DNA of 64,000 nt from a virus. Lineage: Duplodnaviria > Caudoviricetes. The stretch is from positions 1-64,000 of IMG/VR virus record IMGVR_UViG_3300017791_000207; one strand, given 5' to 3'. The notes under the pieces were generated by a model. That model made no database searches. It had not been told where the DNA came from and saw nothing but the letters and a program-made list of their open reading frames with translations. Both the position numbers and the translations under genes were made by a program. Shown one piece after another: positions 39,739-58,786 of the stretch (positions are counted from its first letter, which is position 1; each line of letters opens with the position of its first letter).

Positions 39739-40860
39739 TTATTTTAGTTTTGGTGGTTCTATTAAAGGCTTAGGTAATTGATTTAGTTCAAAGAAATAAC
39801 TACCATTCTTAATTTTATAAGCAATATCCTGATCGAATTCAATAGGCTTAGGCAAAGTTCTAAACATGGAACAAAATGGATAAAATCCAAGTCCAACTGA
39901 AATACCATCAGAATTGAAGGAATTCTTTAGAATATGAACAGACCTATAATATTTCACTCCTTTATCATCCCTCAACCAAGATAACTCATAACCTAAAGAT
40001 TCAGATTTATCATTCATATGTCGGAATGGATCAAAAAGGGCTAATACTACATCTGCATCTTGAATAGTACCTGAACTATCCTGAAAATCACTTAATTTAG
40101 GTTGAAGATCACCAAGTTTTATTCTATCTGAACCTGAAATAGACCGATTCATCTGTTGTAAGATTACAGGACTCCATCCGTAAGTATCACGAGCAGTACG
40201 CATAATACTTGAAAATTTATCTATTTCTTGTTTCTTATTGGAGGTAGCTAAAAGGCCAATATGATCTGTAAGGATTAAAACCACGTGATTGGGGTGATTG
40301 GGTGTATATACTTCTCTTTCAATCACTCCTTCGGCATCATTTATTTTTTCAATTTTTCCATGCTTTTCAGCAAAACTTCGCAAATACTCTCCAATCTTAT
40401 CAGCTTTAATAACACCCTCATAACAGGTAAGCATTGGATCTATTTCATCAAAAATATACTTATACTCACCAATTAAATTAAGCTCCTTATCATCAAGCTT
40501 AGAACCTATACCAAGTATTCTTTCAACGGGTATTAATATTCCACGATCTGCAAATATTAACCTGCTCAACCATCTTGCAGTAGAACGATATTGTTTACGT
40601 TCCATACCAAAGTAGATAATTGAAATTTTTATCTTGGCTGTATCCTTATTTTTAAGATACCACAATAAAGGATGTAAAATAAATACTTCTGTGGAAAAAC
40701 TCGTCTTAGAACTGCCTGATTCTCCTCCGATTACATATGTAGTATTCTTTGCTATATTCAAGAAATAACTTAACCTTTCGAGAGGAAATGGTATAACTCC
40801 ATTTTCACCGCTCAAACCCTTCTTTATCTCAACTTTTAAATCCTCAAATATTTGACTCAT
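39739..40860 (-). CDS. DnaB-like replicative helicase
   Basis: GGESGSSKT, YFGME, LTDHIGL, QQMNR, DFQDSSG.IQDAD, LKN. Confidence 0.8.
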   Translation of the reverse strand: MSQIFEDLKVEIKKGLSGENGVIPFPLERLSYFLNIAKNTTYVIGGESGSSKTSFSTEVFILHPLLWYLKNKDTAKIKISIIYFGMERKQYRSTARWLSRLIFADRGILIPVERILGIGSKLDDKELNLIGEYKYIFDEIDPMLTCYEGVIKADKIGEYLRSFAEKHGKIEKINDAEGVIEREVYTPNHPNHVVLILTDHIGLLATSNKKQEIDKFSSIMRTARDTYGWSPVILQQMNRSISGSDRIKLGDLQPKLSDFQDSSGTIQDADVVLALFDPFRHMNDKSESLGYELSWLRDDKGVKYYRSVHILKNSFNSDGISVGLGFYPFCSMFRTLPKPIEFDQDIAYKIKNGSYFFELNQLPKPLIEPPKLK

Positions 40861-42159: not shown

Positions 42160-42594
42160 TTAATCAATCATAAAATAATCATTAACAATATCAGGATATT
42201 TCTCTATCACTAAATCAACTATTTCACTACTCTTAAAGCACACGCCCGAAGGATAACCCGCACCGACCTGACCGTAGCAGCCGATGACAACCCACCGAGA
42301 ACCAGACCAGTATTTTTTAAGGATATACTTATATTGAGAACCATTCTTAAAGTCAGCTACCCAATCACCATTGTAATATTTGGCAATATGAAATAGTTGC
42401 ATCTGAGCATTTAACTGTCTTTCCCACTTATCAGTTGTATTTGATGGATATGGAAGTTTAATACTTTCTATGTTTGGTGAATTGAATGTATCTTTACCAT
42501 AAGCCGTTTCAAACATTATTTGCATGGCTCTTGGACTTTCACCATAATATTTGATAGCATCTTCTTTACTGATTTCTAATTTTTTGTTTTCCAT
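42160..42594 (-). CDS. Paralogue of the DGR target protein (second, remote target)
   Basis: Shares LPY, NA, NG, WVV, PSGVCFKSS, P(D/E)I..DY.MI with ORF 57752..58303. Confidence 0.8.
   Translation of the reverse strand: MENKKLEISKEDAIKYYGESPRAMQIMFETAYGKDTFNSPNIESIKLPYPSNTTDKWERQLNAQMQLFHIAKYYNGDWVADFKNGSQYKYILKKYWSGSRWVVIGCYGQVGAGYPSGVCFKSSEIVDLVIEKYPDIVNDYFMID
42236..42307 (-). repeat. VR2: diverged DGR variable-repeat-like segment
   Basis: Locally GC-rich run of NNC/NNT codons; 15-nt identity with VR1 (42239-42253 = 57834-57848); aligns to TR with many A-site changes but also non-A changes and indels. Confidence 0.7.
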
Positions 42595-43827: not shown

Positions 43828-44457
43828 TTAAGGAGATTGTAATTTATCTACGTAAATTAAATTTGTTTTATTCTTGTCTTTTCCGTTCAACCAACCTCTG
43901 AGGGTTGACCATTTAATATTGTAAGCTTCGGCAGCATCTTTACAACAATCAAAAAATATACCTGTTTGTAAATCCACTACTAGTTTAGCTCTACCATTAT
44001 CTCCTCTTTCTCTCCAACCACAAGGTCTTTTAACACCTTTGAATAATTTACTTATTATATTTCTAGTCTCCTCATTGTGAGTTTTTTCGAAAAATGGATT
44101 TTTACTACCTAATTTAACTTCTGAATATTTTTTTCTACTGTCATCTGATAAAACCGAAGGTAAAATATTAGTAGAAGAATAACAACAATTCAATCCTACA
44201 TTTAATGTATCATAAAATTCCTGCCAATAACGTTCTCTTTCATTAAGGTCTTCAATTGAACATTCTTCGATTATTTCAAAAATATGATTTTTGAATCCAT
44301 ATTCTTGCAACGATTGAAAAATTAATCTTTGATTCTTACAACGGTTATTTCGATAAGAACTCCATCTACTTAATATATTTTTACTTTGTCCTACATATAT
44401 TTCTCCAATGGGATTAATGATCTTATAGATTCCTATTATCTTATTTTTATAAGGCAT
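43828..44457 (-). CDS. GIY-YIG homing endonuclease with NUMOD-like repeats
   Basis: GIYKI..YVGQS..R, FEIIE, ERE, GLN; NPF..KTH.EETR; ATG 44457 is the likely start. Confidence 0.85.
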   Translation of the reverse strand: MPYKNKIIGIYKIINPIGEIYVGQSKNILSRWSSYRNNRCKNQRLIFQSLQEYGFKNHIFEIIEECSIEDLNERERYWQEFYDTLNVGLNCCYSSTNILPSVLSDDSRKKYSEVKLGSKNPFFEKTHNEETRNIISKLFKGVKRPCGWRERGDNGRAKLVVDLQTGIFFDCCKDAAEAYNIKWSTLRGWLNGKDKNKTNLIYVDKLQSP

Positions 44458-44581
44458 AAACAAAAAATCCTCCAAATTAGGTTGCTGAATCACCGAAGTA
44501 ATACCTAAAATGGAGGAGAATAAGTTTATAATAGATGACTCAGCGATACAAATGTAAAACAAATTATTTACAATTCCAAAT

Positions 44582-53114: not shown

Positions 53115-53522
53115 TTAGCAAAATTTTTGTTTTATTTCTTGATAAAATTCTTTACCTTCTTCTGAAAGGTCATTTTTAAACCACCATTTATCATTATCAT
53201 GTAGACAAGATAGCTCAATTAAAAATTCTTCTCCTAATTCTTGAATATCTTCGGGCAGCATATTCCATATTCTACTAATCCCTGCTTCTCCAAATACTTT
53301 ATCAATTACTTTGCGTAGAGATTTAGGGAGCAATCTACCCACAGCATCTCCATCTGTTTCTACCATAAGGCTTTCTCCACTATACATGACTTGTCCCCAA
53401 TATCTATTTGTAAAGCCTCTGTAGTCTTCTTCCTCTTTCCATCCTATGCAGCGAGGATGTTCTTTGTAATATTGGACTGTATCATCCAATATCTGTCTTC
53501 TACGATTTTTAATTGGTTTCAT
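53115..53522 (-). CDS. Hypothetical protein, paralogue of 63577..63996
   Basis: Shared LD...YY, C, GR, LP, F.....LHD...W...L...G. Confidence 0.6.
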   Translation of the reverse strand: MKPIKNRRRQILDDTVQYYKEHPRCIGWKEEEDYRGFTNRYWGQVMYSGESLMVETDGDAVGRLLPKSLRKVIDKVFGEAGISRIWNMLPEDIQELGEEFLIELSCLHDNDKWWFKNDLSEEGKEFYQEIKQKFC

Positions 53523-56340
53523 TGTATAAATTTTTTACATAATAATTCCATCCACTCCATTCCATATAAACGCGCGGTTCTCTTGGTACGATAGGGTTGT
53601 AAGGAAGATTTTTGAAATCTCTAATATTTTTTACTTTATTCACTAATAGATATTTAATAAAATCTTCGTAATTTAATTTAACATATCTTATTTTACTTGG
53701 AAAGAAATCCTCTTTATTATATTCTTTATAAAATCTATTAGGGTAAAGAGGTAAAATATTTTTTGGAAATTCTATGTTTAATGAACCTTCTTTCCACTTT
53801 CTATATTGTCTAATACTTGATATAATTCCATTATGCTTCTTATTTACTTCAATTATAGTTTTCTTAGCATCTTCATAAGAAATATATTTTAATTCTTGTA
53901 ACTTTTTCCAATTCCATTTACCTTTATAAACCGAATAAGGGTTTTGTGGAATATAAGGAGGATAATTGTCCTTTCTTTTTTCATGAGTGTTACAATCTAA
54001 AATTTCATTTCTTACAAACCATTTAATAGCTTCTTCAAATGATAAAAATCCTTCTTTATAGTTTAAAAATTCGTGCCATCTAAATTTAACACCATACCTT
54101 TTTTCAGGATCTTTTGGAAGATTTGGGGGAAAATCATTTTTTAAAGTCCATTTTTTATATTGTCTAAATGTTTTAATGTTTGAATGATTCTCTAAAATAT
54201 ATTTTTTAGCTACTGGATAACTATAAATCTCAGGTTTGAAAATGTTTTTCCAACCAGGCCAATCTCTATAATATTCTCGTGGATATCGAGGACAACGATA
54301 ATTTTTTATTTTTAAATATTCTTTCTCTGTATAAATCTGTTCTCTTTTTAAGTATGTTTTTAGTTCTTCTAATGTATAAAACTTACTTCCTTTTATGAAA
54401 CTAAATTTAAACACTTCTTTAAAATCAAAAACTTTTAATTTATTACCAGAATATTCCAAAAACTCAATATTTCCCTTAAAAGTACTATTATTAGGCTTGG
54501 CCTTAAAAGAGGTTATTCTTCCATCTTGTGTTTCTAATGCATTCAGTACTTCGATTAACTTTTCATAATCTTCTGATTCTGAGGGAATTATTACATATCC
54601 TCGTTTTTTATTAGGATACTTACGAATGCATCTGCCCACTGATTGTACAATATCAATTTTACTTTTCTTGGGATAACCATATAAAACAGCATCCGTATTC
54701 CTTACATCCATTCCTTCCTGAAAGCAATTTACCGAGGATATAACTGCCTTTTCAGCGTTTACAAAATTACCATATTGATTTTCATATAAAAATTCTGTTT
54801 GTTTAGAATTAATAGTAGAAGTATTGTAATCTAAACCATGAATCTTTTGAAATTTGTCATAGACTTCTATAAATAACTCGGCTTCATGAATAGTGGGATG
54901 ATAAGTTATTATCTTTTTGATACCATATTTCTGTATTGATTTAATGAGTGCCAACGCAGAAACTAAAATTCGAGTCTTAATACCTAACTTAATATTTTTA
55001 TCAAGGAAAAATTCTTCATTTATTTCCAATATATTCCTTACTTCTTCAGATTTAAAACCTATACTAAGTATTTTATAATCTAAGACTATTTTGTTTTGAA
55101 TCATTTCGGGTAATGAAATATTGGATATAGTTTCTCCAAATTTTTCATTATTCATCCCTATACCCTCATTAAGAAAGATTTTTTCAGTAGCTGTTAAAAA
55201 TAGGGCTTTCTCATATTTAGTAGAAGTAACTGCCGAAAGATACTTCTTATTTTCAGGTCCTGCTATTCTATGAGCTTCATCAAAAATTGCTAATTGAAAA
55301 TCAGGAAATTTATTAATGATGGATTCAAAACTTTTTAGAGTTGTAAATACTACAATATTAGCAGTCTTACTTATTCCTTGTATAGCTTCCATTTGCTTTT
55401 CTACAGAAGATGCAAGTAATGCAATTTTATTACTTTTAAGAGGTTTTTGAAATAATGAACCAAAGGCATAAAACCTGTGGTTAGGTAAAGAGTTCTTGAA
55501 AGCTTTTATTTGTTGATATAATAACATTCGGGAAGGGATAACTACTATCAGCCTTTTAATATCTAATTTCTTGACTATTTCAATAGCTGTATAGGTTTTA
55601 CCTGATCCACATGGATGTATTACCTTACCTCTGTTATTATCCTTAAAAAATTCTACTGCTTTATTTATGGTGCATGTTTGATGTTCCCACTCTTTAAATT
55701 TAGTAGTTGTCTGTTGATCTTTTGTTGGAATGACTTCCAATTTCCTTACAAGAGGTTTTTCATTTATAAGAGTTGGAATAATAGAACTAAAAGCATTTTC
55801 GATGTTATTTTTACTTAATTTAGTATCATCTTGAATGGTTTTTAGACAAATTTTCCCCTTTTGTAGAAGTGTGTAAACACCAATTAAGTTTTGAAGTGCT
55901 TTTTTGTCTTTCCCTTGGAGGTTAGTACCTTTATCAAAGGAGTAAGATTCACCACAGTTATTACAGTCATATCTTTTACCGCGCTGTATTACATTGGTGC
56001 TACTACATTTAATACAAGTTTTGTTATCTCCCCATATAATTTTCTCAAAATAATCATATACAAAGCTTTCAGTAGATGAAATACTCTCAATATCTTTTCC
56101 TTCAAGAGGTCTTTCAAACTTATCATAGGAATTTCTATCTTGAATATCATAAACCTTAAAATAAGATTTATATTTCTTTTTGAGTACTTCTAATATTTCC
56201 TCTTCTGTAAATTCTTTATCTTGTTCAGCTAAAAATAAATACAAATCAGAAATAAGATCATCTTTTTCAAAGAAGTTACTCTCAAAAGCACCATTTCTGA
56301 ATTGTTTATCTATTATTTCGGATATTGTATTATATTCCAT
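53509..56340 (-). CDS. Multidomain SF2 helicase: N-terminal helical region, Zn ribbon, DEAH helicase, five integrase-repeat-like units
   Basis: CIKC..CNNC; PCGSGKT, FDEAH, LTAT, EGMD, QSVGRCIR; five (Y/F).E(A)K....P..P..Y..W repeats. Confidence 0.8.
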   Translation of the reverse strand: MEYNTISEIIDKQFRNGAFESNFFEKDDLISDLYLFLAEQDKEFTEEEILEVLKKKYKSYFKVYDIQDRNSYDKFERPLEGKDIESISSTESFVYDYFEKIIWGDNKTCIKCSSTNVIQRGKRYDCNNCGESYSFDKGTNLQGKDKKALQNLIGVYTLLQKGKICLKTIQDDTKLSKNNIENAFSSIIPTLINEKPLVRKLEVIPTKDQQTTTKFKEWEHQTCTINKAVEFFKDNNRGKVIHPCGSGKTYTAIEIVKKLDIKRLIVVIPSRMLLYQQIKAFKNSLPNHRFYAFGSLFQKPLKSNKIALLASSVEKQMEAIQGISKTANIVVFTTLKSFESIINKFPDFQLAIFDEAHRIAGPENKKYLSAVTSTKYEKALFLTATEKIFLNEGIGMNNEKFGETISNISLPEMIQNKIVLDYKILSIGFKSEEVRNILEINEEFFLDKNIKLGIKTRILVSALALIKSIQKYGIKKIITYHPTIHEAELFIEVYDKFQKIHGLDYNTSTINSKQTEFLYENQYGNFVNAEKAVISSVNCFQEGMDVRNTDAVLYGYPKKSKIDIVQSVGRCIRKYPNKKRGYVIIPSESEDYEKLIEVLNALETQDGRITSFKAKPNNSTFKGNIEFLEYSGNKLKVFDFKEVFKFSFIKGSKFYTLEELKTYLKREQIYTEKEYLKIKNYRCPRYPREYYRDWPGWKNIFKPEIYSYPVAKKYILENHSNIKTFRQYKKWTLKNDFPPNLPKDPEKRYGVKFRWHEFLNYKEGFLSFEEAIKWFVRNEILDCNTHEKRKDNYPPYIPQNPYSVYKGKWNWKKLQELKYISYEDAKKTIIEVNKKHNGIISSIRQYRKWKEGSLNIEFPKNILPLYPNRFYKEYNKEDFFPSKIRYVKLNYEDFIKYLLVNKVKNIRDFKNLPYNPIVPREPRVYMEWSGWNYYVKNLYNETN

Positions 56341-56519
56341 TATATTCTAAATATTGTTTTGATTAAATTTTTAGTTGCCAAATCAGAAATAGTTTTAACT
56401 ACGCCTGATTGTTGTCTTTCTAAATTTTGAGTATATCTTTTCTTATACTCTTCTCGAACTTGTTCAGATTTTTTTAATGACCATTTTCCATGAACAAGAT
56501 ATTTGTCTATTGTATTCAT
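56340..56519 (-). CDS. 59-aa ORF coupled to both RT (ATGA) and helicase (TAATG)
   Basis: MNTIDKYLVHGKWSLKKSEQVREEYKKRY...KTIFRI; exact overlaps at both ends. Confidence 0.55.
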   Translation of the reverse strand: MNTIDKYLVHGKWSLKKSEQVREEYKKRYTQNLERQQSGVVKTISDLATKNLIKTIFRI

Positions 56520-57457
56520 TGTATTAAAAGTTTAGCTTCAAGATTCCTCGCGTTGGCATGACCAGTCCAACCAAGATAGGAAGCGATTGATGTTAATTTG
56601 TGCCTGTTTCTTCGGAAATTTTCTTTGATATATTTTCTTACTTTTACTTTATCCTGATCAATTACATAACCAAGGAAGTCCAAAGGTCTTTTATTGATAG
56701 GAAATACTTGTTTATTCGAGAGTTTCAATCTTAATTTTTTATCAAGGTAATCTTCAATCTCATTTTTCAAGTAATATAAATACTCTTTACTCTCATGAAA
56801 TATTACAATGTCATCGCAGTAGATAGCAAGATATTTTATTTTTATGACTTCTTTAAGGTAATGTGAGAATTCGTTAAGATAAACATTTCCAAACCACTGC
56901 GAGGTAAAATTACCAAGTACGCAGCCATGCTCGATAGAATCAATAATCAAATCTAACAACCACAATAAATCAGGATCTTTAAACTTACGTCTCAGAAAGC
57001 CTTTCAAAAGGTCGTGAGATAGTGATGGGTAAAATTTCTGAATATCCATCTTCAAAACATACTTAGTTCCTTTCCTATCTTTAAGATGTTTCTTAATGTC
57101 TTTCAAGCACTTATGGACTCCGCGCGATTTAAGGCAAGAATAGGTCTGAGAAATAAAACTATCTTTTAAAATATCTCCAATGACAAGTATTATCGCCCAT
57201 TGAACAACACGATCTTTAAATGGAAGCTTTGAAATAATTCTTTCTTTAGGCTCATAAATCTTGAATACGAAATACTCCGATAACTTATAGGTTCTTGTTA
57301 ATAATTCTTGCTGTAAGAGTCTCAAATTTTCACTTAAATTACTGTTCCATATCCTAACATCCTTCTTCTTTCTTTTGCCTTTCTGCGCCTTCTGAGAAGC
57401 CTTTATGAGGTTCTCCATACTCACTATCTTATAGAATAAATTTCCTTTTCTTTTCAT
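56516..57457 (-). CDS. DGR reverse transcriptase
   Basis: F.IYEPKER.I, FKDRVVQ, MDIQKFYPS, LGNFTSQ (DGR-type GxxxSQ), YCDD, DFLGY. Confidence 0.93.
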   Translation of the reverse strand: MKRKGNLFYKIVSMENLIKASQKAQKGKRKKKDVRIWNSNLSENLRLLQQELLTRTYKLSEYFVFKIYEPKERIISKLPFKDRVVQWAIILVIGDILKDSFISQTYSCLKSRGVHKCLKDIKKHLKDRKGTKYVLKMDIQKFYPSLSHDLLKGFLRRKFKDPDLLWLLDLIIDSIEHGCVLGNFTSQWFGNVYLNEFSHYLKEVIKIKYLAIYCDDIVIFHESKEYLYYLKNEIEDYLDKKLRLKLSNKQVFPINKRPLDFLGYVIDQDKVKVRKYIKENFRRNRHKLTSIASYLGWTGHANARNLEAKLLIQ

Positions 57458-57618
57458 TCTTTTATTTTATCACTCAACATCCCTGAGTGCTTATTACTAA
57501 GTCTCTTTCTACAATGATACTAAAGCCCGTTCAACTCATCTGTTTTTTACCACGGCTAGAAATGAGAAATATATTCTAACTTTATAGGTAGGGTCTAATT
57601 GTCTTTCTTTTTTATAAT

Positions 57619-57693
57619 AAACATACGTCTGAAGGAATCATCGTGTTGTTGTTCCAATTGTTGTTGTAGTTGACAACTCAGTCGTGATCAGAC
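57619..57693 (-). repeat. DGR template repeat (TR)
   Basis: Intergenic AAC-rich 75-mer; ungapped match to VR1 with 17 mismatches, all at TR adenines. Confidence 0.95.
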
Positions 57694-57751
57694 TTTGACT
57701 AAGGGGGTAGAATGTAGACACATTCAATTAGACCTTTTACTTGCTTTTATA

Positions 57752-58303
57752 CTACTCGTTTATCATTGAATAGTCATCATATATTTCAGGGAACATTTCA
57801 TATGCTTTTAAAGCTAATTTTGAAGATTTAAAACACACGCCCGAAGGAAGCAACGCGCCGTTGCTCCAATCGTAGCTGCAGTAGACAACCCAGCCGAGAT
57901 CAGACGAATAATACTTGTATGGAAAATATTTACCCATACTTGTATCTTTCCAAGTAAGCTCAGTTCCTCCATTCATTACTTCCGAAATAATCATCATCTT
58001 TTCAGATGCATTGATACTTTTTTGACGTGGGGTGAGTTTATTACCTTGGTAAGGAAGAACCAATTTATCTAGTCTTTCTTGAATGACAGACTTATCGATA
58101 TCTCCTGGTTCTTTAAGGTATTTCTTCAGAGTTTTAGTTTGTTCTTCGTTGGCAGCTTCAAACATTTCAGATACTTGTGCTTGTGTAAGTTCTGTATCTT
58201 CAAATAGAGAAGTCATTTTCTTGATTTTACTCTTCCAATCTTGACAAGCGATATCAAAAATGGCTTTCATACCTTCGTAAGGTACTTTTTGTGTGTTACT
58301 CAT
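57752..58303 (-). CDS. DGR target protein (about 183 aa)
   Basis: Contains VR1 (SDLGWVVYCSYDWSNGALLPSGVCF) near the C-terminus; ATG 58303 is the likely start. Confidence 0.88.
   Translation of the reverse strand: MSNTQKVPYEGMKAIFDIACQDWKSKIKKMTSLFEDTELTQAQVSEMFEAANEEQTKTLKKYLKEPGDIDKSVIQERLDKLVLPYQGNKLTPRQKSINASEKMMIISEVMNGGTELTWKDTSMGKYFPYKYYSSDLGWVVYCSYDWSNGALLPSGVCFKSSKLALKAYEMFPEIYDDYSMINE
57831..57905 (-). repeat. DGR variable repeat (VR1)
   Basis: 17 of 25 TR adenines substituted (12 A>G, 4 A>T, 1 A>C); no non-A mismatch. Confidence 0.95.
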
Positions 58304-58786
58304 GTGTTTTGTTTTACTGTTTATAAATATATAGATAATTGTTGATAACTTTATATACAAATCCTTTATAAAAAACAGACTTAGCATCAATTTCACTTAT
58401 CCTATAAAGAAACTCTAACCAAGCATCTTCTTCCTCTCCAAAATTAGCATCATCATAATCAGATAAACTAGGATGATCTAAAATTTCGGAGGCTCCTTCA
58501 GATAAGGTAAAGGAATTATACACCTCGTCTAAATTTTTAGCTTTTAATATTAACCTGTCTTCTATCATTCAAAATTTATTTAGGTCATTAATTGGAAAGT
58601 TAGTAAGGTGATCTTCAGGTATCTCAATTCGGTTGATACCTTGTGGTTGAGCGGGAATATTGGTTTTGATTGGCTCACCATAGAATAAGAAGTTCATTAT
58701 TTTGCGTATCATCAGTTTTTAGATTGAGACGATTATTAGTATTAATATTAACCAAATAAATATGTTGAGTAGTTTCAAGTAGAGTG

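Follow-up and report, generated by a model that had tools for sequence, protein, structure and literature searches.

The phage genome described here encodes a DGR with two target genes, and the variable region of the remote one (VR2) is a genuine DGR variable region in a non-adjacent second target. Its sequence is best read as the imprint of an 11-codon TR allele, an allele that the genome no longer contains. We think it probable that VR2 was left mismatched when recombination replaced the segment that carries the other variable region (VR1) together with the TR. The window analysed is the first 64 kb of a complete viral record of 115,287 bp with direct terminal repeats, which derives from metagenomic assembly.

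The DGR cassette and its two targets

The RT, the TR, VR1 with its target 1 gene and the remote target 2 gene all lie on the minus strand, as follows:

42160-42594, minus strand: target 2 gene (remote), P0001, 144 aa; ORF with translation, paralogue of P0002
42235-42309, minus strand: VR2 over the whole TR span, 75 nt; 25 codons, against 26 in the TR and VR1
42239-42252, minus strand: IMH-like 14-nt GC motif at the 3′ end of VR2; identical to the VR1 copy
42253-42285, minus strand: hypervariable core of VR2, 11 codons; 5 of the 11 residues differ from P0118
42286-42291, minus strand: GTTGTC, 5′ flank of the VR2 core
56516-57457, minus strand: DGR reverse transcriptase P0003; RVT_1 1.7e-15, phrog_1423 2.9e-107
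57618-57695, minus strand: resident TR; 12-codon core, 20 A-only mismatches to VR1
57752-58303, minus strand: target 1 gene, P0002, 183 aa; mosaic relative to its orthologues
57830-57907, minus strand: VR1, in target 1, cognate to the resident TR; 0 non-A mismatches

VR2 thus shares its genome with a DGR-type RT (P0003). The resident TR is the sole TR-like sequence in the 115-kb genome, and over 78 nt it differs from VR1 at 20 positions, all of them TR adenines, with no non-A difference. No Avd-type Pfam match was found in the two ORFs examined that flank the cassette (58314-58568 and 53509-56340). We also note that the TR contains a TGA in the frame of the target at 57678-57680 (minus strand), where both VR1 and VR2 read TGG (Trp); if the adenine of this TGA were copied faithfully into cDNA, the target would be truncated.

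The target 2 protein P0001 is related to P0002 (36% identity over 106 aa, BLASTP E 5e-17), in agreement with the first-pass annotation, which had called this gene a paralogue of the DGR target 15 kb away, and these two are the only copies of the family in the 115,287-bp genome. The GC-rich, VR-like segment described there is present, 11 codons long (42253-42285) and bounded by the same flanks as in VR1. The exact 15-mer said to be common to VR1 and VR2 is real, and BLAST extends it to 20 of 21 nt; VR2 is indeed one codon shorter than the TR, with 25 codons against 26 over the TR span. Two details need correction: the non-adenine differences, put at roughly eight, number 11 when counted over the full TR span, and the compensating pair of indels that had been invoked is not needed, as a single 3-nt gap suffices.

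The GC motif has exactly two perfect matches in the window, one in VR1 (57834-57847) and one in VR2, where the chance expectation is 0.42 matches (100 shuffles, with up to 3 mismatches allowed). VR2 therefore has an IMH-like 3′ element that differs from its TR copy: the latter departs from the motif at three adenines, two of which are synonymous sites that read G in both VRs. Random mutagenesis would explain this less well than a fixed, IMH-like element on the recipient side.

Target 2 is surrounded by replication genes, including those for a DnaB-like helicase (39739-40860) and a GIY-YIG endonuclease (43828-44562). The latter gene (minus strand), which combines GIY-YIG with NUMOD3 and resembles a homing endonuclease, lies 1.2 kb from the target 2 gene. 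GIY-YIG homing-type nucleases drive local gene conversion between co-infecting phages, and the proximity of this one offers a possible reason for the lower identity of target 2 (72%) than of the RTs (93%) between this phage and its sister (below).

The imprint on VR2 and its misfit to the resident TR

The composition of VR2 is the footprint that would be expected from the copying of an adenine-rich template with its adenines randomised. Its GC content is 62.5% in a genome of 32.5%, adenine occupies only 4 of 72 nt compared with 36.9% on coding strands (p = 5e-10), and C is the third base of 5 of its 9 NNY codons, versus 21% across the genome (p = 0.02). VR2 also uses codons that are rare in this genome, namely CGG (0.2 per thousand) and GCG, TCG and TGC (2-3 per thousand).

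The same pattern runs through the whole target family, for which a full HMMER search gave 114 representatives. Their common frame is a hypervariable patch, most often of 11 residues, between two conserved blocks. Lys, Glu, Gln and Met together make up 1.2% of the patch and 25.6% of the rest of the protein (44 relatives; p = 4e-50), a depletion that is expected if the patch derives from AAY codons, and the differences between several cluster mates (at least 90% identity) fall wholly or mostly within it. Among close relatives, an adenine-poor, AAY-derived imprint goes together with hypervariability concentrated in the VR. The earlier remark that the NNC and NNT codons of VR2 look like mutagenised AAC and AAT is in keeping with the adenine depletion, the excess of C-ending NNY codons and the composition of the patch across the family. 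Since 11 codons is the usual length in the family, the resident 12-codon TR would be the derived form.

A distant branch of the family is represented by 32 metagenome loci (for example L008:9613-10243) in human-gut contigs of 100-190 kb. Its C-terminus is conserved and not hypervariable, and some loci carry two paralogues. These loci have no VR frame, no RT within 10 kb and no A-type repeat, and so are uninformative on VR2; the branch looks like a non-diversified ancestor or cousin of the DGR targets. Separately, residue 85 of P0001 (42342-42344, minus strand), 12 codons upstream of VR2, is G, N or D in three close orthologues; its codon here is GGT, and the change is in the first or second base, like those inside the VR. 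This variation may be a coincidence.

VR2 does not follow the resident TR. With the best single-codon gap, the two differ by 11 non-A and 25 A mismatches, so that the A-only relationship to a TR of the same genome that holds for VR1 does not hold for VR2. An adenine-tolerant scan of the whole genome on both strands, with whole and half-length probes, revealed no second TR for VR2: the scan gave background only (9-10 non-A mismatches), and a hidden second TR in this genome was rejected on that result. With VR1 the scan recovers the TR. A degenerate pattern matching any TR able to give VR2 found nothing in IMG/VR or the GTDB species genomes, nor did DNA patterns for the VR and TR flanks in IMG/VR or the GTDB genomes. 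The search that the first-pass annotation had called for, for a TR related to VR2 by A-only mismatches, was therefore negative in the genome itself, in IMG/VR and in the GTDB genomes. At the DNA level no relatives were found in IMG/VR (with P0001, P0004, P0002 and the target 1 alignment as queries) or among GenBank phages (blastn and tblastn).

VR classes among close relatives and the mosaic DGR locus

Close relatives come from Logan and were compared as protein sequences, their TRs being deduced from the proteins; two or three proteins are assigned to one phage on the basis of contigs of identical bp count from one source. The cluster mate of P0001, P0118 (on a 7.5-kb contig), is 88% identical overall and has an 11-codon VR of the same type. 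The two differ at 7 of 23 VR residues and at 11 of 121 residues elsewhere (Fisher p = 0.01, moderately significant), and all seven VR changes can be made with the third codon base of P0001 kept. P0004, encoded by a 117,114-bp contig (the sister phage), is a 72% identical orthologue of P0001 with a wholly different, 12-codon VR, which can be derived from the TR of our window by A-to-N changes at 24 of 27 codons. Its misfits are two adjacent codons of the core and the last codon compared; this last codon is beyond the TR/VR match and fails to fit in VR1 too. The misfit at the two adjacent codons suggests that the template of P0004 was a related allele and not the resident TR itself.

The target 1 orthologue on the same 117,114-bp contig, P0008, belongs to the 11-codon class, as does P0119, which shares a 3-kb contig with an RT (P0247) that is 96% identical to P0003. 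P0001, P0118, P0008 and P0119 have the same 11-codon length and the same positions of misfit to the resident TR, and one hypothetical 11-codon template yields all four VRs by A-to-N changes. On a 98,374-bp contig, the same class-specific imprint is found in both targets, P0120 (target 1) and P0005 (target 2), and extends to states in the conserved flanks. Judged by these comparisons, the remote paralogue is evidently the normal second target of these DGRs, distinct TR alleles evidently circulate in the phage group, and this phage and its sister appear as a pair with reciprocal mismatches between the remote VR and the VR beside the RT. We also note that target 1 of our phage has two extra residues relative to all eight aligned orthologues, the first immediately ahead of the TR-homologous span and the second within the VR core, which marks the resident VR1 and TR as the odd ones out within their own group.

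These findings bear directly on the suggestion that VR2 was written from a different template, which is strengthened by the recurrence of its non-A departures in P0118, P0008 and P0119 and by the reciprocal mismatch in the sister phage. Conservation of the segment in homologues had been named as the observation that would overturn it, and the segment is instead the most variable part of the protein. The description of VR2 as a frozen product stands in a relative sense only, as P0118 carries a different VR2 of the same class; the 11-codon template was therefore active after the two lineages diverged, or in one of them.

Target 1 is itself a mosaic. The first 84 aa of P0002 are 90% identical to P0119 and about 70% to the other orthologues. 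Beyond the VR, in a tail not rewritten by any DGR, its identity is 92% to P0120 and 73% to both P0119 and P0008, while the tail of P0119 is 92% identical to P0008. The RTs of this phage, the P0119 contig and the 117,114-bp phage are 93-96% identical (77-78% to those of three further relatives), with the differences among the close relatives spread evenly along the protein, and a recombination breakpoint inside the RT was rejected for that reason. Of the origins considered earlier for the VR2 imprint, a swap of TR between phages that left the mark of an earlier or foreign allele is the one favoured by the mosaic target 1 and the 93-96% conserved RT. In the history that we propose, one RT and TR would normally rewrite both paralogous targets in this phage group, homing through short 5′ homologies and the GC motif common to the 3′ ends of the VRs. 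Recombination with a relative carrying a 12-codon allele would then have replaced the 3′ half of target 1, VR1 included, and the TR, which lies 140 nt downstream, would have been exchanged with it; the RT and the gene for target 2 would still descend from the original lineage. VR2 would thereby keep the non-adenine bases and the length of the old template, presumably without having been overwritten since. The direction and number of the exchanges are what we infer from these patterns, and VR2 is presumably not being rewritten at present.

It had also been suggested that the resident TR might still overwrite VR2 through the shared 3′ motif. In BPP-1, a recipient needs the 3′ GC element, a downstream hairpin and at least 8 bp of 5′ identity (PMC3240598). 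The 5′ microhomologies of VR2 are comparable to those of VR1 and its 3′ GC element is identical. No significant hairpin or cruciform was found downstream of either VR (z = 0.36 for VR1 and 0.26 for VR2; 91 nt folded as DNA), and such a structure was dropped as a discriminator between them, being absent at the cognate VR1 as well. No 12-codon VR2 was seen in this lineage, and the remote VRs are unconverted in both this phage and its sister, with no visible bar to conversion. As VR2 has everything known to be needed for homing, its unconverted state is left without an explanation if the DGR does act there; recent swaps, rare homing to the remote site or an unseen requirement are possible reasons.

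Several other origins of the mismatch were weighed. VR2 might be written even now by the DGR of a co-infecting relative, whose 11-codon TR would act in trans through the common 3′ motif, the remote target of the sister phage being written likewise by a 12-codon TR. The identity of the 3′ GC motif in VR1 and VR2, the 93-96% identity of RTs across the classes (by which the machinery should be interchangeable), the reciprocal mismatch in two phages and the A-type differences between VR2 and P0118 would all be in keeping with this. We nevertheless consider it unlikely, because it leaves unexplained why the foreign class occurs only at the remote target while VR1 matches the resident TR, because it would demand frequent co-infection, and because the mosaic tail of target 1, which no DGR has written, reveals real recombination at the DGR locus. 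We give slightly less credence to the idea that the contig is a chimera of two co-occurring strains and that VR2 and the TR were never on one molecule. The record is a metagenomic assembly in which such an artefact would mimic a swap, there are strains whose RTs, at 93-96% identity, might let an assembler switch between them, and the Logan contig that shows the opposite mismatch could be the other product of the same error. But the record is complete at 115,287 bp with direct terminal repeats, the 10-40% protein divergence around the breakpoints leaves few long identical stretches at which an assembler could cross, and mosaicism is also found on an independent contig, the 3-kb one that carries P0119 and the RT P0247.

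Non-canonical mutagenesis, in which the resident TR would have been the template of VR2 and errors at non-adenine sites plus a deletion by slippage would account for the misfit, has a precedent in the proposal of Wu et al. (2018), whose second target showed seven non-A differences plus an indel (PMC5758913). Here the non-A states and length of VR2 recur at the same positions in P0118, P0008 and P0119, which random errors would not do, and 11 codons is the modal length of the family, with the 12-codon TR the odd one out; we thus regard such an origin as highly improbable. Ordinary paralogue divergence, in which the segment would be a conserved or slowly drifting loop without any link to a TR, might draw on the negative searches for a cognate TR in the genome, IMG/VR and the GTDB genomes. 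It is the least credible of all and fails on the condition set in the first-pass annotation: the segment is the most variable part among close relatives, is extremely depleted in adenine and rich in GC within a 32% GC genome, ends in an exact 3′ motif of the VR type and belongs to a patch whose composition fits AAY-derived codons family-wide. Replacement of the VR1-TR segment by recombination is the reading that we retain.

Protein fold, known systems and significance

P0001 has no match to a Pfam or PHROG family. Its AlphaFold2 model (pLDDT 90.8, built on 98 family sequences) consists of helices and a β hairpin at residues 89-108, with the variable residues running from the second strand of the hairpin into the next loop. 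No clear neighbour of the model was found among solved structures (Foldseek E > 0.3; best VIA-align Z 3.2). The missing fold match would neither show nor exclude a relationship to C-type lectins, and the target family may, by its predicted structure, represent a scaffold for variable proteins distinct from the C-type lectin and Ig folds usually used.

One precedent was found in the literature for a remote VR that fits a TR type other than the resident one, that of Treponema denticola SP32. There, a TR type known from related genomes matches the VR of a non-adjacent target better than the resident TR does, and the authors took the target to have remained from an earlier DGR type (Nimkulrat et al. 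2016, PMC4891356). VR2 would be a further example of such an orphan remote target. As in SP32, the remote VR misfits the resident TR, and here the match to a template of the relatives is drawn solely through protein VRs. In SP32, the whole DGR differs (RT about 70% nucleotide identity), the setting is a bacterial chromosome and the matching TR is known. Here, in contrast, exchange seems limited to the VR1/TR segment, with RTs still 93-96% identical, the setting is an apparently lytic 115-kb phage, and there is a sister phage with the reciprocal mismatch.

Phage DGRs are known in which one RT and TR serve an adjacent target and a second one tens of kb away in the same genome (PMC5758913; PMC8008677), and the second target of Quimbyvirus is found among genes for non-structural proteins (Benler et al. 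2021, PMC8008677). The targets in those reports were assigned by an A-to-N match to the TR and carry C-type lectin domains (PMC5758913; PMC8008677); unlike them, VR2 misfits the resident TR, and P0001 has neither a Pfam family nor a solved-fold match. In BPP-1, the recipient is distinguished by a GC-rich element that ends the VR on its 3′ side and is not identical to the TR copy (PMC3240598); VR2 has a GC element of this kind. The present system differs from BPP-1 in that neither VR is followed by a GC-rich hairpin or cruciform (z about 0.3), that no Avd-like gene was seen adjoining the cassette, and that the VR lies about 25 codons before the stop and not at the end of the gene.

DGR surveys assign remote targets only by an A-to-N match to the TR, and orphan targets like VR2 are thereby missed. 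Non-adenine differences in such targets have previously been read as sloppy reverse transcription; the 98,374-bp control and the reciprocal case indicate that such mismatches can reflect history and not chemistry, the remote copy having kept an old imprint. The locus also amounts to a natural experiment on DGR recognition, in which two VRs have the same 3′ motif and the same RT family but only one obeys the resident template. As for the target family, it is a small phage protein whose gene sits among those for replication; the model is confident, and neither fold nor function is known.

It is a tentative and rather doubtful generalisation that TR alleles behave in a group of gut phages as exchangeable cassettes under a conserved RT, with remote targets left unconverted by a non-cognate TR although the 3′ recognition motif is identical, or else that co-infecting DGRs write each other's remote targets. 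If either were true, the choice of target would need more than a motif of the IMH type; if cassette exchange is what occurs, recombination would create phages whose two variable proteins sample different sequence spaces.
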